From UHGV virus genome UHGV-1962423: DNA of 64,000 nucleotides; one strand, given 5' to 3'. Below, piece after piece: positions 6,918-58,112 of this stretch (positions are counted from its first letter, which is position 1; each line of letters opens with the position of its first letter). The notes under the pieces were generated by a model. It saw only the letters and a program-made list of their open reading frames with translations, ran no database searches and was not told the origin of the DNA. The DNA is from a virus. A program made the translations under genes and the position numbers.

Positions 6918-6958
6918 TTCAGATATATATTACTTAGGTGAGAGAATTACGTAATACT
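6918..6958 (+). promoter_or_regulatory. conserved promoter-like box TTCAGATATATATTACTTAGGTGAGA plus palindromic hairpin
   Basis: One of five near-identical AT-rich boxes in the window; hairpin core attacgtaat at 6946-6955; about 45 nt upstream of ATG 6991. Confidence 0.6.
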
Positions 6959-8646: not shown

Positions 8647-8820
8647 ATGAACAATGGTTACTACTTTACTGACAAAATGCTTGCAGAACAATATGCAGCA
8701 AAAACCAATTTACAGCAACGTATCTACGAGTATAGTCAACTCGGTGCGAATAAACGATTAAAACCATCAACCAACCGTTTCACACAGATAATCACTGAAA
8801 AAAGGAGTGAACGCTACTAA
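8647..8820 (+). CDS. small protein, tandem paralog 3 (57 aa)
   Basis: Not in track. MNNGYYFTDKMLAEQYAAKTNLQQRIYEYSQLGANKRLKPSTNRFTQIITEKRSERY; AGAGGG RBS; hairpin gggggtg...caccccc downstream. Confidence 0.55.
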   Translation: MNNGYYFTDKMLAEQYAAKTNLQQRIYEYSQLGANKRLKPSTNRFTQIITEKRSERY

Positions 8821-8955
8821 CTAATAAAAGGGGGTGTGCTACCACCCCCTACTTAGTTCAGCAGTTGTCTTTCGTTCATAAATATTAGATGTCTTGTTTT
8901 TTTTTGCTTTTCGGGACGCATAAGGGGTCGTAGGGGGAGCCGAAGCTCCCCAGAC

Positions 8956-10518
8956 TCAAAAGAGTTCGTCACCCATACCGCCTGTAAAGACGTTAATCGA
9001 CGATGCAGTCACTGTTTCTTCTTTATCGCAATCCCATGGCAGAATGCCAACTTCACGGAAAGGTATTACTGTATAATGGTAAGCTTCTTTAGTATCGATA
9101 ATTGTACGGTGTTTACCACGTTGTACTTCTAAGTAACTATGCCCATTGACAACACGTTTGTTAAAATACATCTCACCGTCAGCTTCGTTATCCAAGCTGG
9201 AGCAGTTATCGTAAAGACCGCGACCTGGTAAGTTCTTACAGAAACTTGCTGGGTCTAACGCTTTTAATTTTTTGCCTTCTGGTGAGATTTGGTGTGGCGC
9301 TAACAAGAAACCACGGTTACGTACTACCTGGATGTTTCGAGCGATACGATAAATTTCTTTAATGTCGCTACCGGCAATCCCGTTACCGTGACCTGCTTTA
9401 CTGATAGTCCCGAAATAGTCTCCGCGAATCCCAGCTACATGATAACCTCGACGCTTTAAGTCCAGTATTAAGTCGTTTAAGTAATGTATTTTAAAATCTG
9501 AGTTTGTGTGTTTCTGAAAGATGTACTCCCAACCGTTAGCCCGCATTTTACTACAGAGGTAGTCCGACATTTTTGTGTTGTGTAAAGCTTTCTCTTCGTC
9601 GGTAGCGTTTTCAGAAGCAACCATAACCGGTGCTTCACCTTCAAAATGACCGTAGAGCGCTTGGTACGCATACGCCAAATTAACGTCCAGTTCGTTCTCT
9701 AAACTTAAATCGAGAATAACCGGCTGTAAATCCCCTTTAACGTTTTCCATTACCTTTTCAGGCGTATTGAATACCGGAATACTGATAGACAACAACAGAC
9801 TAAAAAGCGATTTACAGTTAAAGGGCAGTGCAGGCATTAGCCAAAGTTCTTCAGTAATCCCTTTGTTACAACCCAACATCTGGTTAATGGCTTTCCATCC
9901 GGTACGTAAACCATTACCCGCTGCTTTCTTACTGATTGAGTCGAACACATGTACGAACGGTGCACGGTTATCCGTAATAAGTTCACCTACGAGTGAGGGA
10001 ATCTTATTATGAGAGCGTTCACTGAACGTAGAGAGACTATCTCTGAGGTCGTTGAGCGCTGTTTGTAAATCAACGCGCGTTTCGGTTCCGTTCAGTGCGC
10101 CTAACGTACGACCTAATTTTTGTTTCAGTTGTACGCCTTGAATAGCTTGACGTAATTGGAAGTAGTATTGTGCTACTTGACGGTTAAGATGCTCGATGCG
10201 TGCTTCTGGTTCTTCTGGAATATCATCTTCCAGGAATTTGGTAATCGTATCGTATAGAGGACGTATTTGCGTAGTGGCCAGTTTCAAACGTTTCATGACG
10301 TTTGTGTGGTCGTAAGGCATACCGCCGTCTATGATGGATGTGATGATATCCTTGATTTCGACGAGGGCGGCACGTTCGTCACCTTCCTCTACGTAATCAG
10401 GAAGCTTAGCCTCTAACAGCACTTTTCTTATGACCTCGTGATCCTTCTCAGGGTCGGTCAGCAGACTTTCAGTGTATAGTGTGGCTAATGCGGTTATCAA
10501 CATCATTTTGTTATTCAT
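8956..10518 (-). CDS. hypothetical protein (520 aa)
   Basis: Long minus-strand ORF, one of only two reverse genes; AAGGATG RBS on minus strand; start lies 13 bp from the divergent + gene start. Confidence 0.75.
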   Translation of the reverse strand: MNNKMMLITALATLYTESLLTDPEKDHEVIRKVLLEAKLPDYVEEGDERAALVEIKDIITSIIDGGMPYDHTNVMKRLKLATTQIRPLYDTITKFLEDDIPEEPEARIEHLNRQVAQYYFQLRQAIQGVQLKQKLGRTLGALNGTETRVDLQTALNDLRDSLSTFSERSHNKIPSLVGELITDNRAPFVHVFDSISKKAAGNGLRTGWKAINQMLGCNKGITEELWLMPALPFNCKSLFSLLLSISIPVFNTPEKVMENVKGDLQPVILDLSLENELDVNLAYAYQALYGHFEGEAPVMVASENATDEEKALHNTKMSDYLCSKMRANGWEYIFQKHTNSDFKIHYLNDLILDLKRRGYHVAGIRGDYFGTISKAGHGNGIAGSDIKEIYRIARNIQVVRNRGFLLAPHQISPEGKKLKALDPASFCKNLPGRGLYDNCSSLDNEADGEMYFNKRVVNGHSYLEVQRGKHRTIIDTKEAYHYTVIPFREVGILPWDCDKEETVTASSINVFTGGMGDELF

Positions 10519-10531
10519 GGAGCATCCTTAA

Positions 10532-11056
10532 ATGCAAATTCGTTTTAGTCCACCGTGGGAAGTTCAGCCTAACATAGATAAAGGCGCTGCCGTTAAAAGT
10601 GTAGAATTGCTCCAGGCAGGGTTCTTTAACTGGTTATATGACTGTCCGAATGGTTTCAGTTCTATCATCTTACCTGAAGTAAGTCGTTCTGCTATTTATA
10701 AAGCGTTAATGGCTCCGCCTGTACTTCCAGGTAAATATTATGATCAGGTGTTACGTCTGGTCGAATCAGGCGAAAAGGTTTCCCTTGACGATTTATATGG
10801 GGAAACAATTCCTTGTCGCTTACGCTGGGTCTTTACCCAACGTGGTGATACGATTGTGGCGTCATTTGCAGAAGCGAAGTCCGGTTCGGGTTTTTCTTCG
10901 GGTGAAGACCACGCTGCGAAAAAGATGTTCTGCGCAGAACTTTTTAAATATATGCGTACCAAGACTCGCGTCGTGGATGACTGCTTCAGTACCTCAACGC
11001 AGTTTGCCGCTAACGAAGTGCTGACGCAATTATACGCATGTCATTTATCTCATTAA
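10532..11056 (+). CDS. hypothetical protein (174 aa)
   Basis: ATG 10532 with GGAG 9 nt upstream; immediately precedes the highly expressed 761-aa gene. Confidence 0.7.
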   Translation: MQIRFSPPWEVQPNIDKGAAVKSVELLQAGFFNWLYDCPNGFSSIILPEVSRSAIYKALMAPPVLPGKYYDQVLRLVESGEKVSLDDLYGETIPCRLRWVFTQRGDTIVASFAEAKSGSGFSSGEDHAAKKMFCAELFKYMRTKTRVVDDCFSTSTQFAANEVLTQLYACHLSH

Positions 11057-11068
11057 GGTATTAAACAA

Positions 11069-13354
11069 ATGAAAGATACCCGAATCTCTAATTTAGAGAA
11101 ACTCGTAGAAGCCGGTACTAGTCTGGCCCAAAACGTCATCGGCAACAACACCGCCAGCGAAATGTGGAAGACGATTGTTGCAGGCGAGTCCGTACGTAGC
11201 AACGCAAAAGTATTTGGCGCTCTGCGTGACGAAGCATCACAGCACTATGCCAACGCTTTTGGCGGCAAGAAAATGTCTCATGCTGCGACCGTCGCTTCCG
11301 CAATGATTCTGGGCGTAGCTAACCACGGTAAAGACCTGCAAGAACGTGTTGCCCAGGAATACGCTAAGCCGGAATTCCACACCAAGTATAACCTGGATAT
11401 TGGTATCCCTGGTGCGCAAGGTGGTGATTGGGGTCGTGAGCGTATGGTTGTTGCTCAGGAATACTACAGCAACAAAGACTACGACAAAAACTTGGGCCTG
11501 ACCTGGACCCTGAACGTACGTGCTCTGGAAACTCAGTCCAAGTTTGCTGAAACACTGTTCCCGACCATTACCGTTGACACCAACGATGTTGGTATTACCG
11601 TACGTACTAAAGTGACTACCGTTTCTCGCGGTATCATGAACGCGCTGCTGAGCAAAGACGTCGTTGAAGATCATCGTCGTCCGCTGCACAACGCACTGAC
11701 TGACCACACCGTTCTCCAGGACGAAGCGATCAACATCGTTCCTTACGTAATGGAAACCGGTGAAAACCAGGAATACTTCGTAAGCGAAGATCTGGTTCCG
11801 AACGAAAAAGTTCGCCTGGGTCGTGTACCTCCGTATCCGACTAACTACCTGAGCTTTGCAAACGACACGCTGAACCTGTTCCAGCTGTCTGCGCATCCGG
11901 GTATCGTTCAGGAAGGTTACGATGAAACTGATGAAATCGCACCGGGTTGTGCTCTGGGCAGCCTGCTGATTTCTGTACGTAAACCGGCCGAAGAAGCGAA
12001 AGCGGGTAAATTCATCAAACTGCACGTTCGTGACATGCAGTTCGCAACCTTCCAGCGTCCTGCTGAAGGTGACGGCCGTGAACTGGTTCTGCAATTCCGT
12101 CGTACCGCGTTCTCTCTGAATGCGAAAACCACTGACTGGAAAGGCGACGCTATTCCGGCACTGCAAGCACTGGGCCAGAACTCCTACACCCTGCGCTACG
12201 TTATCACCATCACCATGTCCCTGTTCACCAGCGGCCAGTTCGGTGGTAAAGTAGACATTTCCGGCCACAAACTGGAAATCGAAGGTCTGTACGATGCAAC
12301 TGGTAACAAAGTTGATACCAAGTCTGGTACCGGCAAAGTTATCCTGGATGGCCTGAAACTCGAACTGATGGGCTGGCGCTTCGATGGTACTCGTACCAAC
12401 GAAAACCGTCGTACCCAGGGTCTGCTGCTTGACCCAATTTGGGAACAGGAAAACTACAAACTGCAATACGGTTCTCCGATTCTGACCAAGTCTCCGGTTG
12501 GTGTTGAATACGACGACACTGAACGTCTGGATGACCTGATCTCTGCGGTGAACATCCGTAACGAACAGCTGGCTATTACTCAGACGCTGTCTTACACTGA
12601 AGCAGTACGTAACGCAGCCGCTGCGATGATCACTCCGTGGGACAAACCGGCTATCCGTGGTCTGGGCCGTCACTGGGTTGCTCCGTGGTTCAAAGAGTCT
12701 GACTACAAAGTCGATGAAGTTGTTCAGTCTCTGGATACCAAAGAAGCGCTGATCAACGCTCGTCAGGGTCTGTTGCAGCGTATCGGTAGCCAGGTAACTC
12801 AGGCTATCCAGGATTCTCGTTTCATTCCTGCACTGCGCCTGCTGACCGCTGATCCGGACATTCTTCCGAAAGTTATTATCGCAACTGACGAACCGACTGC
12901 ATCCATGCTGCTGCTGGTTCAGGGCGACCAACGTCTGCTGGGCGACCGTTATGAATACGAAGTCGTTACCACCAACGATGACCGCTGGCGTATCTACAAC
13001 GCAGCTGACGATTCCTGGACTCGTCGTCTGCAATGGTTCCTGAAAGTTCCGACTGCGGACGATGGTTCCTACTGCGTACTGAACTGGGGTAACCACTTCT
13101 GGTCTCCGATCATGGTTACCAACATCAACATTCAGCGTAACGGTTCTACTTCTAAAGAACTGGCTGTACAGCCGCGTAACGCGCATATCTGCCACTGCCC
13201 GATCACTGGTCTGATTTGGGTTAAAGGCATCACCAAACTGGTTGAAGAAAAACTGGCTTACAACGTTTCTGTAGAACAGAACGGCCAGAAACAAACCGAA
13301 GGTGGTGTAGCAGGTAACCTTGCTGTCGAAGGCAAAGCTACCGCTGGTAAATAA
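11069..13354 (+). CDS. highly expressed major virion structural protein, possibly major capsid protein (761 aa)
   Basis: Strongest codon bias in the window (CTG, CGT, GGT, AAC, GAA), strong terminator downstream. Capsid assignment is inference from size and expression signature only. Confidence 0.85.
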   Translation: MKDTRISNLEKLVEAGTSLAQNVIGNNTASEMWKTIVAGESVRSNAKVFGALRDEASQHYANAFGGKKMSHAATVASAMILGVANHGKDLQERVAQEYAKPEFHTKYNLDIGIPGAQGGDWGRERMVVAQEYYSNKDYDKNLGLTWTLNVRALETQSKFAETLFPTITVDTNDVGITVRTKVTTVSRGIMNALLSKDVVEDHRRPLHNALTDHTVLQDEAINIVPYVMETGENQEYFVSEDLVPNEKVRLGRVPPYPTNYLSFANDTLNLFQLSAHPGIVQEGYDETDEIAPGCALGSLLISVRKPAEEAKAGKFIKLHVRDMQFATFQRPAEGDGRELVLQFRRTAFSLNAKTTDWKGDAIPALQALGQNSYTLRYVITITMSLFTSGQFGGKVDISGHKLEIEGLYDATGNKVDTKSGTGKVILDGLKLELMGWRFDGTRTNENRRTQGLLLDPIWEQENYKLQYGSPILTKSPVGVEYDDTERLDDLISAVNIRNEQLAITQTLSYTEAVRNAAAAMITPWDKPAIRGLGRHWVAPWFKESDYKVDEVVQSLDTKEALINARQGLLQRIGSQVTQAIQDSRFIPALRLLTADPDILPKVIIATDEPTASMLLLVQGDQRLLGDRYEYEVVTTNDDRWRIYNAADDSWTRRLQWFLKVPTADDGSYCVLNWGNHFWSPIMVTNINIQRNGSTSKELAVQPRNAHICHCPITGLIWVKGITKLVEEKLAYNVSVEQNGQKQTEGGVAGNLAVEGKATAGK

Positions 13355-13410: not shown

Positions 13411-13535
13411 TCTATTATTTTTCGGATAGATATTATTAAAGAGAGACTGTCAGTTGGTTTAAAGGAGAGTTTATGGAAAAATTACAGTTAAAACTAAAGA
13501 TATGTACCATTATTAAAACTTAATCTGGCCCTTAC

Positions 13536-14556: not shown

Positions 14557-16332
14557 GTGTTTAAAGATGCAATCAGAAAGCTTAAAGAGGATGGCAAAAT
14601 AGTACCCTTTAACCGAGCGATTGCGGAAGGTGTCGGTTATACCCAGGCCAAAGATGGTATACACGAACGTGTTCAGATTATCTTGAAACGTGAGCTGGAT
14701 TATCATCCTGTTGATAATCCGCGTGTTCCTGAAGGGCTGGCTGTATTAGGTGTACGGTTAATGTCGCCGTTTGAAACGTTCATCTATAAGCTGTCTCGTT
14801 CTGAGAGCAGCAGAATGGATAGACGCCGTGGTGTGATGTCCATTGCGAACACCGATGCGTATATGGTCATGTCAACATTCCGTATTCCAGGAGATTCTCG
14901 ACCGATCTCAAGACCGATTAACTTACCCTTTATCCGTCGTGGTGGTTTAATGAACTATTACGGTACGACGTATCACGTTGCGCCGGTTATTCACCAGCCA
15001 GGTATCTGTCGCGAACACGGTGGGGTATTTGTTAACTTTGACTTTAAACGTAAAGCCTCGTTGAAATTCTGTAAGCAACCTGTCCGTGTGTTAGTCAACG
15101 GTAAAAAAGAGGAGCTATTCTTACCAGGAACCAAAAACCTGTTCAAAGCGAAGAACGCAACACATCCCGATACTGACGAGAAACCGTTAATGTATTGGTT
15201 GTTCGGACGTTACGGATTTAAAGAAGCGATTAAACGCTATACTGGTGTTGACGTAGAAATTTATCCATCGTTTAAGATCCCAGAACTCGATCTCAACGAG
15301 AAAGTTGTAATCAGTTCCGGTGAATCGAAATATAACCGTTCGATAATGTACGCGGTTGTCGTACCCGCAGAAGCATTGCCGAACGTGGATAAAGTCGGTT
15401 GGGATCAAAACGAGCATTTATTGCTGGCTGCAATTGCTGCGTTCTTCAAAGCTGCTCACTACTATTGCAGTAAACAATCTATTAAGAACGGTAACGTCAC
15501 ACCGCTGCCGCCGCTGTTTACCGCAATTAACGAGTTAGCGATGGAAGACGATATTGCTAATCTGAACTCTGCTCCGATTTGGCGTGAGATTCTGGGAAGA
15601 AGTATCGTAGGACTGAAACCTTCCGATATTGAGTTAGCGCACAGTATGGCGAAACACTATACTGAATGTGATCGCTATGTTAACTCAACGTTCCGTGCAG
15701 AACTGAAGATGACCGATCCCGACATTCCAGACGATATGGATATGTTTGATTTCTTCTGGTATGCAACGAAACTGATGGTACGTACCCGTTTGACCAAACA
15801 GGGCGACATTCCGTCGATGTACGGAAAACGTTTAACCGTAACTGACTACTTACTGTTAGGTGACCGTGGGTTTACACCAACGGTAGCGGCTATTCGTTTC
15901 CAGCTGGGACAAACGGAGAACCGTTCGCCGGAATCCTGCGCGAATATGATTCGTAGCGCACTCAATAAAGAAATTGTCACGAGTCTGGTACTGCGTAATA
16001 TCACCGGTAATGGCGGTGTAAGTTATTTTAACGCATCAACAGAATCCATGGTGTTAGGAGTATCCACACACGCGATCAGTCAAACTGAAACGGAATCTAA
16101 ACGCAACAGCAAGGGCGGTAAAACGGTTAACCTTAACGACCGTACGAAACACGCTTCTGCATCGCATCTGGAGTGTGGTAACGTTTATTATATTCCGAAA
16201 TCATCCCCGTTCAAATGGGGTGTCCTTAACCCGTATATGAAAACTAACCGTCAGTTAGTGATGGTTCGTAATCCAAAACTTGACGAGTTAATTCAAGCAA
16301 CTGAAGAAGACATTGCGAAGATTGGCCGTTAA
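14557..16332 (+). CDS. hypothetical protein (591 aa), GTG start
   Basis: GTG at 14557 with AAGGAG 6 nt upstream. Confidence 0.8.
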   Translation: MFKDAIRKLKEDGKIVPFNRAIAEGVGYTQAKDGIHERVQIILKRELDYHPVDNPRVPEGLAVLGVRLMSPFETFIYKLSRSESSRMDRRRGVMSIANTDAYMVMSTFRIPGDSRPISRPINLPFIRRGGLMNYYGTTYHVAPVIHQPGICREHGGVFVNFDFKRKASLKFCKQPVRVLVNGKKEELFLPGTKNLFKAKNATHPDTDEKPLMYWLFGRYGFKEAIKRYTGVDVEIYPSFKIPELDLNEKVVISSGESKYNRSIMYAVVVPAEALPNVDKVGWDQNEHLLLAAIAAFFKAAHYYCSKQSIKNGNVTPLPPLFTAINELAMEDDIANLNSAPIWREILGRSIVGLKPSDIELAHSMAKHYTECDRYVNSTFRAELKMTDPDIPDDMDMFDFFWYATKLMVRTRLTKQGDIPSMYGKRLTVTDYLLLGDRGFTPTVAAIRFQLGQTENRSPESCANMIRSALNKEIVTSLVLRNITGNGGVSYFNASTESMVLGVSTHAISQTETESKRNSKGGKTVNLNDRTKHASASHLECGNVYYIPKSSPFKWGVLNPYMKTNRQLVMVRNPKLDELIQATEEDIAKIGR

Positions 16333-18728: not shown

Positions 18729-21446
18729 TTAGAGAGTTTCATCGCTGTTGTCATCTGCACCGGTATCCGTCTCGTCCGTGCCTTCAGTTGAAACGTCTTC
18801 TTCCGTTGCCGTATCGGTTTCCGTCGTTTCATCGTCAGTCATGTCCAAGTCTTCATCACCGCCCAGATCGTCACCACCTAAGTCCTCATCGCCTCCTAAG
18901 CCGCCGTCATCTTCAGTGCCGCCGCCAAAGTCGCTGCTACCGCCGAAGTTATTGGCGTCTTCAGGATTCAGATCAGCCGCTTTTGCTAACGTTTCAACTT
19001 TCCCTGTTACACGTTTTGCCAACTGAATCAGTGTCTTAGATGCAGACGCAATTTCGTCAGAGATCATCTTAACGTTTTCACCGCGTTTCTCTTCATCGTA
19101 AATCAGGTCGAACATATCGTTCTCAATACCCTGACTACGTAACCAGTGGCGCGCGTAGAAGGTCTTAACCATCGTCTTGAGGTCATCAGGTGACATTTCA
19201 ATACCTTCGTTCTGAAGCATATTAGCAATGTCATCCGTGACCACCAGATCTGCAAGTTTCTCGATAAATTCATAGCGTTTATCGAAGAGATCAGCTTGAG
19301 ATGCTGTTGCAGAAGTATCAGGTGGTGGCAAGGTGACCTTCATACCGTTGATAAACTTCGCCATATACTCTGACGTTTGTTTTGTCATCTCTTCGCTAGA
19401 TACATTCGGATTCTGCTCACGGATATACTCAACGATAATACGGATGAGTTCTGCTTGCAGTTTCGGTGAAGCTTGCAGACTGTTTGTAACGTAGCGCGTA
19501 AGCGGGGTTGAGAGGATTTCCTGTTTCTTCACAATCTGTTGAGTAACCAACAGCGATTTAGAATAAATCTGAGAAGCAAACTCCAGGTTCTCCGGGGTAA
19601 GTACAAGGTCAGGATCAACACACGCGATGTGACATGTACGGCGTAACAGGTTCTCGTCAATTTGTTGATCAGGAACTTTATACTCCGGCGTGGTATCAGA
19701 CACAGACACTTTGTGGCTGGCGTAGTAATCGTTACCCGTTACGTTAAAGGCAATCCCCGCGTTAGCTCCCATTGCCCAAGCATCGTTAATATCCCCCCAC
19801 ATCGGTAAACGACGGTTGTAGGAGTTAAGGATATCTGATTTGGCTTGGTCGACAGTTTTTTGACCGTTTGCATCGTCCGGTGACAGCTCAATGTCGTACT
19901 GCATGTGACGTGCCGAGTTTAGTACAGATGAGTTCATTGTCGCAAACAGCAGTGCCATCCTGACGGTGGAGATGATAAAAGAGCGTTCAGTGATAGAAAC
20001 CCCGATACCATCTTCGTTAAAATCCGTTGCAAAATAGCATAGGTTATTAACCGGAATGTAAACCACTTGAGTATGACGTTTTGCGAGATGACGCGCTAAC
20101 AGAATACGGCCGAATGTTTCGGTAATATTCATGCTGATTTCTGCGCCACCTAGTGCCTGACTTAATGCGCGAGCAAATTCGTTTTCAGCGATTTCACCGC
20201 AACGTGTACTTAAACGGTTGGCGATTTCCGGGGTAATGCGAGAAGTGTTCCCTAAGCCCAGATTAGAACGGTTAATGATGCTGTCCGTCATCCCGTCGTT
20301 ATTCAGGTAGTTCATAAAGTTCGCATCGCCGTACAGCGAGGAGCGAGCATTGATGAAGTTACCCATGTCATCTACGATGGTCAGATAACCAATAGGGTTA
20401 CGAACGTCATCGCCAATTACCAGTGGCAGCGTTGACTCTGCGGGCAGTAAACGTTCGATGTATTCGATTTTGTTATTCTCATCCATTGAGATAATAGGAA
20501 TATCACCGTACGTTTGTGTTTTCGGTGTTGACTTATACGCCTCGTTTAAATCACCCAAGTTAATGAACCCTTTTTCAGCAGCGTCACGCTGACGGTCATC
20601 GAAAGATTGGTTAGGGTCGAACGGACTGCCACCGTTTGGTGTAGACGGCTTTTCATATGCGGCTTGCTCTAATTGCCCGTACAAACCCGTACGTGCGTTC
20701 TCATGCGCGATACGACGATACAAATCCGGCAGCATGGTAATGCGCGGGTTATCGGTAATCGTGATTTCCATCTGGAATTTATCCGAGAACATCGAATCGT
20801 GCTTACCGAAATCGATTTTCAACGTCTGAGGACCAGTAACGGCTCCGTGTAAACGGTTGAGAATTGATTCCACACCAACTCGCTGCCCTTCTTTCGGCGC
20901 ATTAATAGGCCCGAGAATACCAAGCTGTTGTTCGAAGAACGCCGTTTGGGAACGACGAATAGATTCAGTAGCGACCTTTGTATTCAGACCGAATAATTGG
21001 TCGAAGCCGGTATCCGAGATTATCATCACTGGACTTGCGCCTTTGGTTTTTAACGCATCGTAAATCCACTGATATAATTTCTTAGGTAGCTGACGAATGT
21101 TATCGTGATAATCACGGGTCGGTGTCAGTAGCGCGTTACGCAGATCAATGGGGATGTCCGCGAAGTTGTCGTAAATCAACGTCGTGTTGATTAAGTCTTT
21201 TGTTGATAACAGGCTCGAAGTTGCAATAGTAACGATTGTTTCGAGTTCAGGTAACGCATCAAAGATACGTTCCGCATTTTTGATAGTACGAATACGTGAA
21301 CTCGCAATTGCCGTGAGTTCTTGACGTGTTGGCGTAGAACCACCCTCGCTACGCGTACCGCGTTGTTGCTGAGGTGCTGGGCCCGTAGTTTTACGAAGAA
21401 TTGCAGCTACGGCGGGGTCGCCCGTTAATTTACTAATATCGTCCAT
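18729..21446 (-). CDS. large hypothetical protein with Gly/Asp-rich acidic C-terminal tail, possibly virion-associated (905 aa)
   Basis: Long minus-strand ORF; GGAG RBS on minus strand; C-terminal ~75 residues are GGDEDLGGDDLGGDEDL...TDETDT low complexity. Portal or structural role is speculation. Confidence 0.8.
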   Translation of the reverse strand: MDDISKLTGDPAVAAILRKTTGPAPQQQRGTRSEGGSTPTRQELTAIASSRIRTIKNAERIFDALPELETIVTIATSSLLSTKDLINTTLIYDNFADIPIDLRNALLTPTRDYHDNIRQLPKKLYQWIYDALKTKGASPVMIISDTGFDQLFGLNTKVATESIRRSQTAFFEQQLGILGPINAPKEGQRVGVESILNRLHGAVTGPQTLKIDFGKHDSMFSDKFQMEITITDNPRITMLPDLYRRIAHENARTGLYGQLEQAAYEKPSTPNGGSPFDPNQSFDDRQRDAAEKGFINLGDLNEAYKSTPKTQTYGDIPIISMDENNKIEYIERLLPAESTLPLVIGDDVRNPIGYLTIVDDMGNFINARSSLYGDANFMNYLNNDGMTDSIINRSNLGLGNTSRITPEIANRLSTRCGEIAENEFARALSQALGGAEISMNITETFGRILLARHLAKRHTQVVYIPVNNLCYFATDFNEDGIGVSITERSFIISTVRMALLFATMNSSVLNSARHMQYDIELSPDDANGQKTVDQAKSDILNSYNRRLPMWGDINDAWAMGANAGIAFNVTGNDYYASHKVSVSDTTPEYKVPDQQIDENLLRRTCHIACVDPDLVLTPENLEFASQIYSKSLLVTQQIVKKQEILSTPLTRYVTNSLQASPKLQAELIRIIVEYIREQNPNVSSEEMTKQTSEYMAKFINGMKVTLPPPDTSATASQADLFDKRYEFIEKLADLVVTDDIANMLQNEGIEMSPDDLKTMVKTFYARHWLRSQGIENDMFDLIYDEEKRGENVKMISDEIASASKTLIQLAKRVTGKVETLAKAADLNPEDANNFGGSSDFGGGTEDDGGLGGDEDLGGDDLGGDEDLDMTDDETTETDTATEEDVSTEGTDETDTGADDNSDETL

Positions 21447-21457
21447 TGGGGTCTCCG

Positions 21458-23641
21458 ATGCAGAGATTTAACATATTTCGTGAACAGAACATCGCGTTGG
21501 CGAAATCACTGATTATTAAATCAGAATCAATCGCACAACAGATGAATCTGGCAATAACCGAGAACGGCGGTTTCGTTTCCGATAACCGAAGTACGTGGCG
21601 ATACTACCTGCATTTAGCAGGACAACGTCACGAATGGGATAAGCCCATTTACATAACGTCGCTCGACACGCAAGAGCAGATAGAATTAACGACAGCCAAC
21701 CTGTCCCGTCATAAAAAGACCTCAAACGTATTTCGTTCGAACGGTGAGTACATTGAGGAGCTGATCAGAACGTATCCTGACTACGCGATTTATATCCGAG
21801 GTGTGTTTAATCCGGTGGATATAAACTACGCCATCCGTGTGGCTGATTGTTCTATTCTCTATTACGACAGTTCATTAGTGGAGTCGCAAGAGACGTCACT
21901 GATGTCGAGATTGGAAGACAGAATAAGGGCAGCTCACGTTCGCTATATGTCAGAAGGGTGGAAAGTTCACAACGATGCGTTCGTGTTAGCATTCTACTGT
22001 ATTCTGTATCCGCAGCTACCCGGCATTATCGGCTATATCCGTTCTTCTTTACAGCATACCACGGAAACACACTCGTTTTACGTGACAGAGTTCTTAGCAT
22101 CACACCAAGAACTTCACGAGTTTATGCCGTATCTGACCCAGAAACAGAAATTCATTCTTTATCGGAACATTCGTTACTGGGAACGTAACTCGGGGAAAGA
22201 GGAGATTTTCGACTGGCAGATTGATGCATTGCTGACAGGTTGGGGGATGCCTGCGGTTGGGTATAATGTTGCACAACAGATACACGAACCGAAGGATGAT
22301 GATGACTCCACGTTAACACCGTTACCGATCGGTTATCAGCAATCGCTTAACTATACGGAAAAGGATTCTGGTCGAGACCTTGACATTGTAACGACGACAG
22401 ACATTATCCAGAAGGAAGTCGCGTTAGCGTACAATAACCCGGCGTACGAACCGGAGTATCAGGAAGACTTAGATACCCGTTTAAGTTTAACGCAATACCC
22501 TAACCTGAAAACCAAACTCATTGAAGTTACAGCAGTCGACCCAGAAGCGATTGAGCGCTTCGAGTATCTGCATAACCTCTTTAACGAATGGGTACATCTC
22601 GTCGCGAAAGGGAAATACAACATTTACCACGAGATTCTTAACCCAACAAACGGGGATACCTTAAAGCTTAGCTCAAAAGAGTTATTGGCGCTGTTCTTAT
22701 ACGCGGCGTATAAAGGGTATTCTGACGTTGCGTTAGAAGAGATTCCTGCGTTCAACGTATTCGGGGTGTTAATCAAACGTTGGGTTTCGTTCGACGAAAT
22801 GGAACAACATTTAATCCCGAGCTGGGAAAACCGTTTCGAAGCGTTGATTAACTATTATACCGATACACACACAGAAGTCGTCGGAACGATTCTTAGTGCT
22901 GATGAACTCTACGACACGGTTAATGAAATCATTACCCAGAAACGTCGTCGTTGGCGTTATAGTCAAAACCGTCGGAAGATTCCTGACCGTGCTGCGGGCT
23001 TGATGCTGTTTAACTACCATTACCGTGATTATCGCTGCGATTTAAAACTGAACTACCGTAACTACGATGAGTTCTTTAAAACGTTCGGGTTAGATTATAC
23101 ATTGGTTTCGGCGGAGACGTGGCAAGACATTGCTATTGATGCGTTTAACACCGCGACTAACCTGGAAACCCGTGCAACGATTTCACAGTCTGAGATTCAG
23201 CGTGCAATGGTACGATTGATGACGAAGTTGTCATCCTACACCGTACATTTTGCTGCGCGAATGGGGTCAGATTCTTACGACGTTATGGACCCGCTCTGTC
23301 CCATCTTAGGGGATATCCCTATGAGTGGGGAGGGGACAATTACAATTATTGAACCCCTCTTAGGCGTACAGCAAGTTACGCGTCACCAGTATATATCCAC
23401 CGACACTGTGTTACCGGCAGCGCCTGTTATTAAAGAACTGTCGATGCCGCAGCACATCAAACTCAGGATGAACATTTACATGGGCATCCGAGTGAAAGTA
23501 ACACAGCAGGTTGTGGTGGATATTAACGAGCCGACTACCGGGGTTGTTAAAGTGAAATCTTCGCTTGACGATTGGACGTTAAACGAACAGGTGAAAATTA
23601 ACGATCTTGACGGCTTCACGCTTGACCAGCTACCTAAGTGA
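21458..23641 (+). CDS. hypothetical protein (727 aa)
   Basis: Track start TTG 21446; first ATG at 21458, 12 bp from the divergent minus-strand start. No Walker A motif seen. Confidence 0.75.
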   Translation: MQRFNIFREQNIALAKSLIIKSESIAQQMNLAITENGGFVSDNRSTWRYYLHLAGQRHEWDKPIYITSLDTQEQIELTTANLSRHKKTSNVFRSNGEYIEELIRTYPDYAIYIRGVFNPVDINYAIRVADCSILYYDSSLVESQETSLMSRLEDRIRAAHVRYMSEGWKVHNDAFVLAFYCILYPQLPGIIGYIRSSLQHTTETHSFYVTEFLASHQELHEFMPYLTQKQKFILYRNIRYWERNSGKEEIFDWQIDALLTGWGMPAVGYNVAQQIHEPKDDDDSTLTPLPIGYQQSLNYTEKDSGRDLDIVTTTDIIQKEVALAYNNPAYEPEYQEDLDTRLSLTQYPNLKTKLIEVTAVDPEAIERFEYLHNLFNEWVHLVAKGKYNIYHEILNPTNGDTLKLSSKELLALFLYAAYKGYSDVALEEIPAFNVFGVLIKRWVSFDEMEQHLIPSWENRFEALINYYTDTHTEVVGTILSADELYDTVNEIITQKRRRWRYSQNRRKIPDRAAGLMLFNYHYRDYRCDLKLNYRNYDEFFKTFGLDYTLVSAETWQDIAIDAFNTATNLETRATISQSEIQRAMVRLMTKLSSYTVHFAARMGSDSYDVMDPLCPILGDIPMSGEGTITIIEPLLGVQQVTRHQYISTDTVLPAAPVIKELSMPQHIKLRMNIYMGIRVKVTQQVVVDINEPTTGVVKVKSSLDDWTLNEQVKINDLDGFTLDQLPK

Positions 23642-33758: not shown

Positions 33759-33795
33759 ACCCCTACCTTCGGGTAGGGGGTTATTTAATTTTTTC
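33759..33795 (+). terminator. rho-independent terminator
   Basis: cccctacc-ttcg-ggtagggg followed by T-rich tract. Confidence 0.75.
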
Positions 33796-33835
33796 TCAGA
33801 TATATATTACCTTAGTGAGATTACACAGTAATCTC
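33795..33835 (+). promoter_or_regulatory. conserved promoter-like box CTCAGATATATATTACCTTAGTGAGA plus hairpin
   Basis: Same box as at 6918, 53683 and 58071; hairpin gagattac-acag-gtaatctc; about 50 nt upstream of ATG 33870. Confidence 0.6.
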
Positions 33836-36818: not shown

Positions 36819-37591
36819 TGCGTATAGTGGATATCCACGATTATCGTAATGACCATTTAGCGATTGGTGTAGAAGGTAAAATGGTTTCGTTAACCCGTGT
36901 ACGTAAAGGGTTAATGGAAAAGGAAATCATTCGGGAATCTGAAGACCCTACTTTTATCATCCTTTCGAATACTAACCAGTTACAGGGCATCTTTTCAGGG
37001 CGTGCAGACGGTAAGATTTTCTATATGTCCGCGATCGTTGTGTTTGCGAAGAAGAACATCAACTTCGCCCAACTCAAACGTTTGTTAAACGTGAAGATGT
37101 TCGATGTCACGTACCCTGCTAACGACCTAAAACGTCGTAATCAATTAATGACGTTTTTAGGTATGCAACCAACGTCTATCGATTATGACCTTACGATTAC
37201 TGAAAAGCCGGAAGTGCGCACTGACTTACCTGACGTAGACGATGTTGAATCCTTAACGTTAGAAGAGACGTTTACGATTCCTAAGGTTGTTAATGTCAAC
37301 CTGGACACGCACTGTTTAGGGTTGTTAGCCGTAGGTGCAGCAGAAGGGTTGTGTTGTCGTAAAGACGGTAAGGTTGAAGGTATCTTAGTCTATTCGAAAA
37401 TCAACGAAAAGACATTTGCCACCGAAGGCTTTTTCTATAACGATTGCACTTACGGAAACGCTCTACTAACCACGTATTTCCGTATTGCTTATCTGAAAGG
37501 CGCAACTGTACGCCTCACGTTTCCATACACAGCTCCACCGTCTATGGGTGGAGTTGAGGTAGAAGCATTAACCGGTCACTTTATCTTTTAA
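36818..37591 (+). CDS. hypothetical protein (257 aa)
   Basis: ATGA-type overlap with dam stop. Confidence 0.7.
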   Translation: MRIVDIHDYRNDHLAIGVEGKMVSLTRVRKGLMEKEIIRESEDPTFIILSNTNQLQGIFSGRADGKIFYMSAIVVFAKKNINFAQLKRLLNVKMFDVTYPANDLKRRNQLMTFLGMQPTSIDYDLTITEKPEVRTDLPDVDDVESLTLEETFTIPKVVNVNLDTHCLGLLAVGAAEGLCCRKDGKVEGILVYSKINEKTFATEGFFYNDCTYGNALLTTYFRIAYLKGATVRLTFPYTAPPSMGGVEVEALTGHFIF

Positions 37592-38470: not shown

Positions 38471-38788
38471 ATGTGGTTAAGTGCTATTCATCGCGATTTA
38501 CCGAAAACGGCAGTGAGTTTTGCTAAGAAAACTCCTGTTCCTAACGTTGGTGTTGCTAAATTTGAACGAGTGGAAGAGGGGCAATTCGTTGTAACGGATC
38601 ATAAAGAAAACGAATTTATGTTGTATCATCCAGAAGTGGATACCTCTGAAATTTGTGAGGGTGTTTTTTTATTGTCCTGGCAAGACCCTGAAACTAAAGA
38701 GTGGAAGTGGTGCACCGCTAAACCATTAAAAGAAATCGAAAACGGTTATGGGATTGGAGAAATTTATGTCGAACCAGAACCACACTAA
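38471..38788 (+). CDS. hypothetical protein (105 aa)
   Basis: Track start TTG 38456; ATG 38471 with GAGGA 8 nt upstream. Confidence 0.6.
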   Translation: MWLSAIHRDLPKTAVSFAKKTPVPNVGVAKFERVEEGQFVVTDHKENEFMLYHPEVDTSEICEGVFLLSWQDPETKEWKWCTAKPLKEIENGYGIGEIYVEPEPH

Positions 38789-49755: not shown

Positions 49756-49799
49756 AAGAGTAGCGTAGGGGTGACCTCCCCCCTACGCGAATCTTAACA

Positions 49800-49809
49800 G
49801 GGGGGGGGG
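49800..49809. repeat. G10 homopolymer tract immediately upstream of start codon 49812
   Basis: Ten consecutive G directly read in sequence, 2 nt before the ATG; preceded by hairpin gcgtagggg...cccctacgc at 49763-49788. Confidence 0.9.
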
Positions 49810-49811
49810 TA

Positions 49812-50315: not shown

Positions 50316-50352
50316 TTATTTTTCAAACGAATGTGTTTGAAAACGTAATCGA

Positions 50353-50362
50353 GGGGGGGGGG
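50353..50362. repeat. second G10 homopolymer tract in intergenic region
   Basis: Ten consecutive G, 55 nt upstream of GTG 50418. Confidence 0.9.
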
Positions 50363-50417
50363 TGAAGTGTTTTTAGCCAACATTTTATGTCTCCCCAACC
50401 GTAGGAGGTAAATATAC

Positions 50418-53640: not shown

Positions 53641-53683
53641 GTAGCAGGGGCTAAGCCCCTGCTACCTTTTTCTTTATTTTTTC
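53641..53683 (+). terminator. rho-independent terminator
   Basis: gtagcagggg-ctaa-gcccctgctac followed by ctttttctttatttttt. Confidence 0.8.
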
Positions 53684-53728
53684 TCAGATATATATTACCT
53701 AGAGGAGAGTGAAATTTACATTCACTCC
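53683..53728 (+). promoter_or_regulatory. conserved promoter-like box CTCAGATATATATTACCTAGAGGAGAG plus hairpin
   Basis: Box plus hairpin gagtgaa-atttaca-ttcactc; about 30 nt upstream of ATG 53757. Confidence 0.6.
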
Positions 53729-58070: not shown

Positions 58071-58112
58071 TTCAGATATATATTACCTAGGTGAGAGTTC
58101 AGTTACTCTCAC
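58071..58112 (+). promoter_or_regulatory. conserved promoter-like box TTCAGATATATATTACCTAGGTGAGAG plus hairpin
   Basis: Hairpin gtgagagt-tcagtt-actctcac; about 30 nt upstream of ATG 58143. Confidence 0.6.

Follow-up and report, generated by a model that had tools for sequence, protein, structure and literature searches.

Two described arrangements of divergent genes help to place the head-to-head gene pair considered here, which lies at positions 8,956 to 11,056 of a 64,000-nucleotide (nt) stretch of the UHGV virus genome UHGV-1962423 (the whole stretch is called the window below). In phage lambda, the promoters PR and PRM stand back to back in a dedicated intergenic control region of ~80 bp that carries operators, and in the excludon-type units of Listeria and other bacteria, divergent genes overlap through long antisense 5' untranslated regions. 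The closest described system is the gp118/gp119/gp120 locus of the jumbo phage phiKZ, whose P119L, the promoter of gene 119, serves as the model late promoter for the nonvirion RNA polymerase (nvRNAP), with the core 5'-TATG-3' on the nontemplate strand and initiation at the G (PMC4666361; PMC7598289; PMC12809450). Promoter recognition by phiKZ-type nvRNAPs is still open: the 4-base core is essential, it cannot suffice, and the other determinants are unknown (PMC7598289; PMC12809450). At the corresponding locus of the window the divergent region is reduced to 13 nt, and patterns of sequence conservation lead us to lean, by a modest degree, toward the reading that both genes are transcribed from starts inside the coding sequence of their neighbor, most likely TATG-type nvRNAP sites.

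The window belongs to a jumbo phage that has Erwinia phage phiEaH2 and Salmonella phage SPN3US among its relatives (~78 to 80% nucleotide identity over the region). The features of the locus are as follows.

8956 to 10518, minus strand: divergent DnaB-like replicative helicase, 520 amino acids (aa), homolog of phiKZ gp118
10519 to 10531: spacer of 13 nt, GGAGCATCCTTAA, with both ribosome-binding sites back to back
10532 to 11056, plus strand: 174-aa gene, end-to-end match to PHROG 8266, in the position of phiKZ gp119 and directly 5' of the major capsid protein (MCP) gene
11069 to 13354, plus strand: MCP gene, 761 aa, identified by Pfam PF25620 (E = 5e-207) and synteny, homolog of phiKZ gp120
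14557 to 16332, plus strand: homolog of phiKZ GP123, a beta-like nvRNAP subunit (phmmer against PDB 7OGP_E, PHIKZ123; E = 9.7e-18)

Gene order and orientation are those of phiKZ gp118, gp119, and gp120 (equivalences given in annotation notes), namely, a DnaB-like helicase facing a ~175-aa gene and the MCP gene, and this order is kept across the phiKZ-like phages. The locus further resembles that of phiKZ in having the nvRNAP beta-like subunit gene a few genes downstream and a TATG-type site, here a candidate, 5' of the small gene. The divergent spacer measures 139 bp in PA7 (Phikzvirus), 128 bp in 201phi2-1, 32 bp in RTH11, 28 bp in Ea35-70, and 11 to 14 bp in the clade of the window. PA7 and 201phi2-1 carry a TATG within the spacer, 47 and 44 nt 5' of the gp119 homolog, respectively, which is taken to be P119L, whereas in the window's clade any promoter would be intragenic. 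This is the ancestral gp118<->gp119-gp120 layout of the phiKZ-like jumbo phages, which form a nucleus and bring their own RNA polymerases, and its divergent intergenic region has shrunk in the SPN3US/Erwinia clade from ~130 to 140 bp to 11 to 14 bp. We regard the feature as a known layout in compact and conserved form, not as a novel type of system. As in lambda PR/PRM, a compact shared region controls divergent genes; the difference is that this locus lacks any intergenic promoter space.

The 520-aa protein matches Pfam PF20307 (E = 5e-126) and PHROG 3213 (residues 1 to 520 against 1 to 506 of 509). The family of the 174-aa protein comprises 28 proteins and is confined to the phage clade of the window. 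Comparison of this protein with the gp119-like proteins phiKZ gp119 and 201phi2-1 gp198 gave no match in BLASTP and a probability of 0.2% in hhalign, and Foldseek searches with its AlphaFold2 model (mean per-residue confidence score [pLDDT], 77) returned only weak matches (template modeling score, ~0.3) to ~180-aa jumbo-phage proteins. Because there is no detectable sequence similarity, which sets the protein apart from phiKZ gp119, it is the gp119 equivalent by position and size only. The MCP gene starts 12 nt past the end of the 174-aa gene, and the two are probably cotranscribed.

An earlier interpretation of the window made from its letters alone (the sequence-only reading) had given the start of the 520-aa gene at 10518, that of the 174-aa gene at 10532, and a spacing of 13 bp, all of which are correct: the helicase ATG occupies 10518 to 10516 on the minus strand (CAT on the plus strand at 10516 to 10518) and the ATG of the 174-aa gene 10532 to 10534 on the plus strand. 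The plus strand across the junction reads ttattCATggagcatccttaaATGcaa, or ttattCAT-ggagcatccttaa-ATGcaa. Each Shine-Dalgarno (SD) sequence had been placed inside the 5' end of the opposite gene; both actually lie within the 13-nt spacer, where GGAG (10519 to 10522) is the SD of the plus-strand gene, 9 nt before the ATG at 10532, and AAGGA (the complement of 10525 to 10529) is that of the helicase gene, 6 nt before the minus-strand ATG. The two SDs make up an imperfect inverted repeat (GGA-N3-TCC). The annotations of 10 relatives, which represent five genera (Seoulvirus, Erskinevirus, Machinavirus, Wellingtonvirus, and Derbicusvirus), show the head-to-head pair as well, with spacers of 14, 14, 14, 14, 13, 13, 13, 11, 11, and 11 bp. 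Across 11 genomes the GGAGCA(T/A)CCTT of the spacer is nearly invariant, and 77% of the spacer columns in the alignment are invariant. The stretch from 10481 to 10584 shows ~91% column identity with 58 to 77% invariant columns, against ~75% and 24 to 35% in the flanks, which fits coding on one strand combined with a leader or translation-initiation region on the other. The divergent layout is real and conserved, and it is not an annotation artifact.

The spacer also harbors a mini-open reading frame of five codons (ATG GAG CAT CCT TAA; 10517 to 10531), which shares CATG with the helicase start codon and whose last codon abuts the ATG of the 174-aa gene. This mini-frame lacks a dedicated SD and is probably a side effect of the palindromic CATG. 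In Caitlin, Huxley, and Kwan, which have the spacer CCTTCAATG, its upstream ATG is in frame with the 174-aa gene.

Both annotated starts are upheld. A downstream internal start in either gene, which the sequence-only reading had named as the way in which a normal spacer might be restored, is not what we found: in the 11 genomes the N termini are kept from Met1, with MN(N/S/I)K(M/T)MLITALA in the helicase and M(Q/R/L)IRFSPPWE in the 174-aa protein. Synonymous changes occur at kept residues of both, namely, at helicase Asn2 (AAT/AAC) and Lys4 (AAA/AAG) and at Pro7 of the 174-aa protein (CCA/CCT/CCG). The helicase, the 174-aa protein, and the MCP each align to their family model from residue 1, and tblastn alignments of the helicase with distant jumbo phages (RTH11, Ea35-70, and others) also begin at residue 1.

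The 13-nt spacer holds only two ribosome-binding sites, and transcription should therefore start within the neighboring coding sequences. The observation of the sequence-only reading that there is no room for divergent promoters holds and is now backed by conserved candidate start motifs inside each neighbor. Its further conclusion that the antisense 5' ends must overlap is a sound inference, although an undemonstrated one that presumes ordinary promoter geometry; this phage family, in contrast, brings its own RNA polymerases, with a TATG late core that overlaps the start site. With such a core, no dedicated upstream DNA would be needed. Three candidate sites were recognized at the locus.

10421 to 10434, plus strand: candidate promoter of the 174-aa and MCP genes, a T-rich tract with TATG (10429 to 10432), predicted start at G10432
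9998 to 10012, plus strand: second candidate start within the helicase gene, GGAATCTTATTATGA, TATG at 10008 to 10011 (present in 11/11 genomes), predicted start at G10011
10573 to 10584, minus strand: candidate promoter of the helicase gene, CCTTTATCTATG, TATG at 10576 to 10573, predicted start at the G complementary to 10573

G10432 lies 100 nt 5' of the ATG of the 174-aa gene, antisense within helicase codons 29 to 31, in TTCTTATGAC (10425 to 10434, plus strand), a block invariant in the 11 genomes. GGAATCTTATTATGA, at 15 nt, is the longest invariant nucleotide block of the 1,563-nt helicase gene; it and TTCTTATGAC are the two longest, and both hold a plus-strand TATG. The block at 10432 is encoded by GTC ATA AGA, fixed in all genomes even though these codons account for just 14%, 10%, and 9% of the Val, Ile, and Arg codons of the window, and its Ile codon is the only one of the 18 invariant-Ile columns of the helicase to be fixed as ATA. 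The site at 10573 lies 55 nt 5' of the helicase ATG, antisense within codons 14 and 15 (AAC ATA) of the 174-aa gene. Its TATG, the sole one on the minus strand of that gene in the window, is invariant in 11/11 genomes; Ile15 follows a C-ending codon and is ATA, a rare codon, in all genomes, and synonymous diversity over codons 1 to 20 is 0.10 to 0.13, against a gene mean of 0.33.

These invariant sites stand out against a background in which TATG is avoided and, where present, usually short-lived between relatives. When synonymous codons were shuffled within each of 72 genes and the 256 tetramers were ranked, only two showed stronger depletion on the sense strand than TATG (160 observed versus 242 expected; z = -7.9), and CATA, its antisense form, was likewise depleted (52 versus 93; z = -5.3). 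The same shuffle showed no depletion of AATG or GATG and an excess of TATC. TATG is thus purged from both strands of the coding DNA, a pattern that a functional start signal should produce. Other avoided tetramers in these genes are AAAA (z = -9.7), AATT (-8.5), GATC (-7.7), and GAGG (-6.6). In codon alignments of 10 to 11 genomes, the conservation of TATG columns is bimodal. None of the 16 columns in the MCP gene and none of the 15 on the helicase sense strand are common to more than four genomes. On the plus strand within the helicase gene, 2 of 14 sites occur in 11/11 genomes (G at 10011 and 10432), as does 1 of 4 on the minus strand within the 174-aa gene (G at 10573); on the plus strand of the latter gene, 2 of 6 do so (G at 10742 and 10799), with one more in 9/11. 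All of the invariant TATGs of these two genes point toward the downstream gene. The window contains 234 TATGs (174 on the plus strand and 60 on the minus strand), only 4 of which have a T-tract context; two of these are the site at 10432 and a site at a second junction, described below, and the others lie at 38593 to 38604 (minus strand) and 37020 to 37030 (plus strand; 37027).

Counts of intergenic TATGs 5' of genes were uninformative; the k-mers enriched there mostly represent terminators, early promoters, and SD sequences. The most intergenic-enriched hexamer is GGGGGG, and runs of 10 to 11 G residues occur in two intergenic regions, 49756 to 49811 and 50316 to 50417 (aacagggggggggggta and cgaggggggggggtgaag).

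A second head-to-head pair in the window offers a comparison.

CAT at 21444 to 21446 (minus strand) and ATG at 21458 to 21460 (plus strand): second divergent pair, with an 11-nt spacer, TGGGGTCTCCG, that holds two opposed SDs

The minus-strand gene encodes a 905-aa virion protein and the plus-strand gene a 731-aa protein annotated as the portal in the records of some relatives; the spacer is kept at 11 to 15 bp in seven relatives. We scanned ~660 nt each way from this junction (~1.3 kb) in eight genomes. Of the 21 TATG columns found, 20 occur in one to three genomes, and a single one is present in 8/8. This only invariant TATG (21710 to 21713, minus strand, G at 21710) lies inside the plus-strand gene, 264 nt 5' of the minus-strand gene. 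Its T-tract context is TCTTTTTATGAC or TTTTCTTATGA, reading GGTCTTTTTATGAC in the window and GGTTTTCTTATGAA in Caitlin and Huxley, which matches the context of the 10432 site, CACTTTTCTTATGAC, in spite of a different amino acid context (His-Lys-Lys versus Val-Ile-Arg). Judged by its sequence, the second junction is an independent replicate of the invariant T-tract TATG.

Several points weigh against intragenic nvRNAP starts. The two overlapping translation-initiation regions can by themselves explain part of the elevated conservation of 10481 to 10584 (~91% versus ~75%), and protein constraint may explain the sense-strand TATGs of the 174-aa gene, which encode conserved Tyr-Asp and Tyr-Gly dipeptides. 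The motif context was recognized post hoc. The T-rich tract of the candidate sites is absent from the P119L-type sites of PA7 and 201phi2-1, and the T-tract TATG at 38600 (minus strand, antisense in a plus-strand gene) is not conserved in SPN3US, SPAsTU, and pEa_SNUABM_9. There is no conserved plus-strand TATG within 660 nt for the plus-strand gene of the second pair, and no TATG on the helicase side of the PA7 spacer. Timing is a further difficulty. The plus-strand sites lie 5' of the 174-aa and MCP genes, which fits promoters of late (structural) genes, whereas the minus-strand site would serve a replication helicase, for which early or middle instead of late expression would be expected, and the phiKZ middle promoters have a different, weak motif. 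TATG has been established as an nvRNAP core for phiKZ only. There, the nvRNAP subunit GP123 binds the TATG promoter core (PMC12809450); the residues of its pocket (Ser144, Asn186, Ser330, Ser334, Asn398, Ser402, and Gln466) were not reliably matched in the homolog from the window in a pairwise alignment of ~20% identity. Our literature search for transcription start site or transcriptome sequencing data on SPN3US-like phages and close relatives found none.

The alternative that best survives, which we regard as possible but doubtful, is long-range transcription. Here, the 174-aa and MCP genes would be served by ~1.6 kb of read-through, antisense to the helicase gene, from upstream plus-strand promoters, and the helicase gene would be transcribed from far upstream in the 174-aa or MCP gene, with the TATG blocks reflecting protein or codon constraint, RNA processing, or DNA-binding sites. 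The second junction, with no nearby conserved plus-strand TATG, is in keeping with such an arrangement. So is the existence of nucleotide-level constraints other than TATG, as seen in further invariant blocks and in a palindrome with a T run at 10927 to 10949, 23 nt of invariant sequence that on the minus strand reads as an AT-rich element as described for the phiKZ middle promoters (PMC7598289). This explanation does not readily account for invariant TATG sites that are built from rare codons, are correctly oriented, and persist in coding DNA otherwise purged of the tetramer. Read-through would also have to pass a hairpin with a T-rich tail at 8829 to 8850, which separates the upstream plus-strand genes from the helicase gene, although in our scan it was terminator-like on the minus strand only.

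This hairpin is one of two GC-rich hairpins (8829 to 8850 and 8936 to 8953) between the upstream plus-strand genes and the 3' end of the helicase gene; it scores as a minus-strand terminator ~100 nt past the helicase stop codon and may act in both directions. An Rfam search of 8700 to 11300 matched no family, barring a subthreshold fragment of CrcZ (E = 0.085) on part of the 8936-to-8953 terminator hairpin, which is almost certainly spurious.

The palindromic block itself, GTTCTGCGCAGAACTTTTTAAAT, consists of a perfect 14-bp palindrome plus T5 and does not vary among 11 genomes of the five genera. It spans codons 133 to 139 of the 174-aa gene, ~120 nt 5' of the MCP start, with a synonymous diversity of 0.03, and in 8/11 genomes a TATG follows 2 to 4 nt past it. 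Folding of the two leaders predicted from the candidate starts and of this palindrome gave no unusual stability (z = +0.6, +1.1, and -0.08, respectively), and because these scores are ordinary, neither a structured RNA element nor a strong intrinsic terminator is supported. Since the RNA hairpin of the palindrome is not stable (z = -0.08), the block is more likely a DNA-level site, such as an MCP promoter element or a protein-binding site, than a terminator.

Early and host-type promoters gave no good candidates for the starts. The AT-rich early-promoter motif of this phage clade (virion RNA polymerase), TTCAGATATATATTAC, has four copies with zero to one mismatch in the window, at 6918, 33795, 53683, and 58071, all on the plus strand, and neither it nor its variant GATAGATATTATC has a copy on the minus strand 5' of the helicase gene or on the plus strand near 10532. 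Matches to host sigma-70 promoters (-35 and -10 hexamers spaced by 16 to 18 nt) in 8700 to 11300 numbered 5 against 4.7 expected, i.e., at chance, and were rejected; phiKZ-like phages are reported to be independent of the host RNA polymerase (PMC4666361). With the early motif absent and the sigma-70 matches at chance, nvRNAP-type sites remain. The early motif takes the form (T/C)TCAGATATATATTAC and then CTAGGTGAGAG (6918 to 6933, 33795 to 33810, 53683 to 53698, and 58071 to 58086), 5' of plus-strand genes and usually just past a terminator hairpin. The variant GATAGATATTATC, with three mismatches, is conserved at 13421 to 13437, after the MCP gene; the element aligned to it in the Derbicusvirus relatives reads TCTCTTATGCAAGAGAGG.

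Quite unlikely, in our estimate, are very short leaders, with starts in or at the edge of the 13-nt spacer (e.g., G10519 after TCATG), such that the mRNAs would barely overlap and there would be no meaningful antisense interaction. In TTCATGGAG, the ATG-containing tetramer CATG does stand immediately 5' of the SD of the plus-strand gene, and Ea35-70 has a TATG that overlaps with the initiation codon of the helicase gene (CATTATG), 24 nt 5' of the gene in the gp119 position. Yet phiKZ requires every position of TATG (PMC4666361), from which CATG differs at the first; no such site on the minus strand could keep the helicase SD; and the invariant rare-codon TATG blocks would be left unexplained. 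A misannotated start, with one gene beginning downstream and the tight spacing an artifact of reading-frame calling, is highly improbable: although helicase codons 5 and 6 are both ATG, codon 5 is ACG (Thr) in three genomes, Met5 and Met6 have no SD whereas AAGGA is conserved 6 nt 5' of ATG1, Asn2 and Lys4 are invariant despite their synonymous codon changes, the alignments with distant homologs begin at residue 1, initiation at Met6 would leave a spacer of only 28 bp, and no other Met precedes residue 60 in the 174-aa protein.

If the intragenic TATG sites are indeed nvRNAP starts, G10432 and G10011, both antisense in the helicase gene, would drive the 174-aa and MCP genes on the plus strand, and the G at 10573, antisense in the 174-aa gene, would drive the helicase gene on the minus strand. 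Starts at G10432 and 10573 would produce leaders of 100 and 55 nt, respectively, with the following overlap.

10432 to 10573: predicted mutual complementarity of the two 5' leaders over 142 nt, if both candidate starts are used, covering both start codons and both SDs

Plus-strand RNA started at G10011 would run antisense to the helicase mRNA over its initial 507 nt. Presumably late plus-strand transcription would then be antisense to the 5' end of the helicase mRNA and could help to shut off the helicase; a regulatory role of the overlap, such as this late shutoff, might in principle follow. Excludons offer the nearest parallel, in that the predicted transcripts of divergent neighbors overlap at their 5' ends and the expression of one can antagonize that of the other. 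The overlap here, however, is predicted from geometry only, is short (~142 nt), and is centered on both ribosome-binding sites, and the polymerase would be a phage-encoded multisubunit enzyme and not a host sigma-70 holoenzyme. A bolder extension can be put forward tentatively, and we would sooner doubt than believe it: the collapse of the gp118/gp119 region may have created an obligate sense/antisense switch, in which a T-tract-TATGA subclass of promoter for the phage's own RNA polymerase, undescribed for phiKZ, is housed in rare codons of the opposite gene, and late transcription of the capsid operon silences the helicase through an RNA duplex over both ribosome-binding sites or through transcriptional interference, with the second pair behaving likewise.

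The MCP gene of phiEaH2 merits a separate remark. In its record (NC_019929.1, 5188 to 7496), the deposited MCP coding sequence starts ~230 nt too far downstream. The gap carries an annotated 114-nt minus-strand coding sequence, and the MCP reading frame is already open directly past the 174-aa gene, encoding the conserved N terminus KDTRISNLEKLV.

For genome annotation, the absence of intergenic space is no reason to shift start codons in such phages. For the biology of the phiKZ-like family, the clade supplies natural "minimal" cases in which the capsid-operon promoter, the counterpart of P119L, would have been forced into coding sequence, so that every conserved synonymous position is informative. 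The blocks TTCTTATGAC, GGAATCTTATTATGA, and (T/C)TT(T/C)TTATGA, together with the genome-wide avoidance of TATG, provide testable candidates for an extended promoter, and a possible antisense shutoff of a replication gene is indicated. The main value of the locus is as a natural experiment on the promoter determinants of the nvRNAP, in a phage family whose polymerase probably tolerates intragenic promoters.

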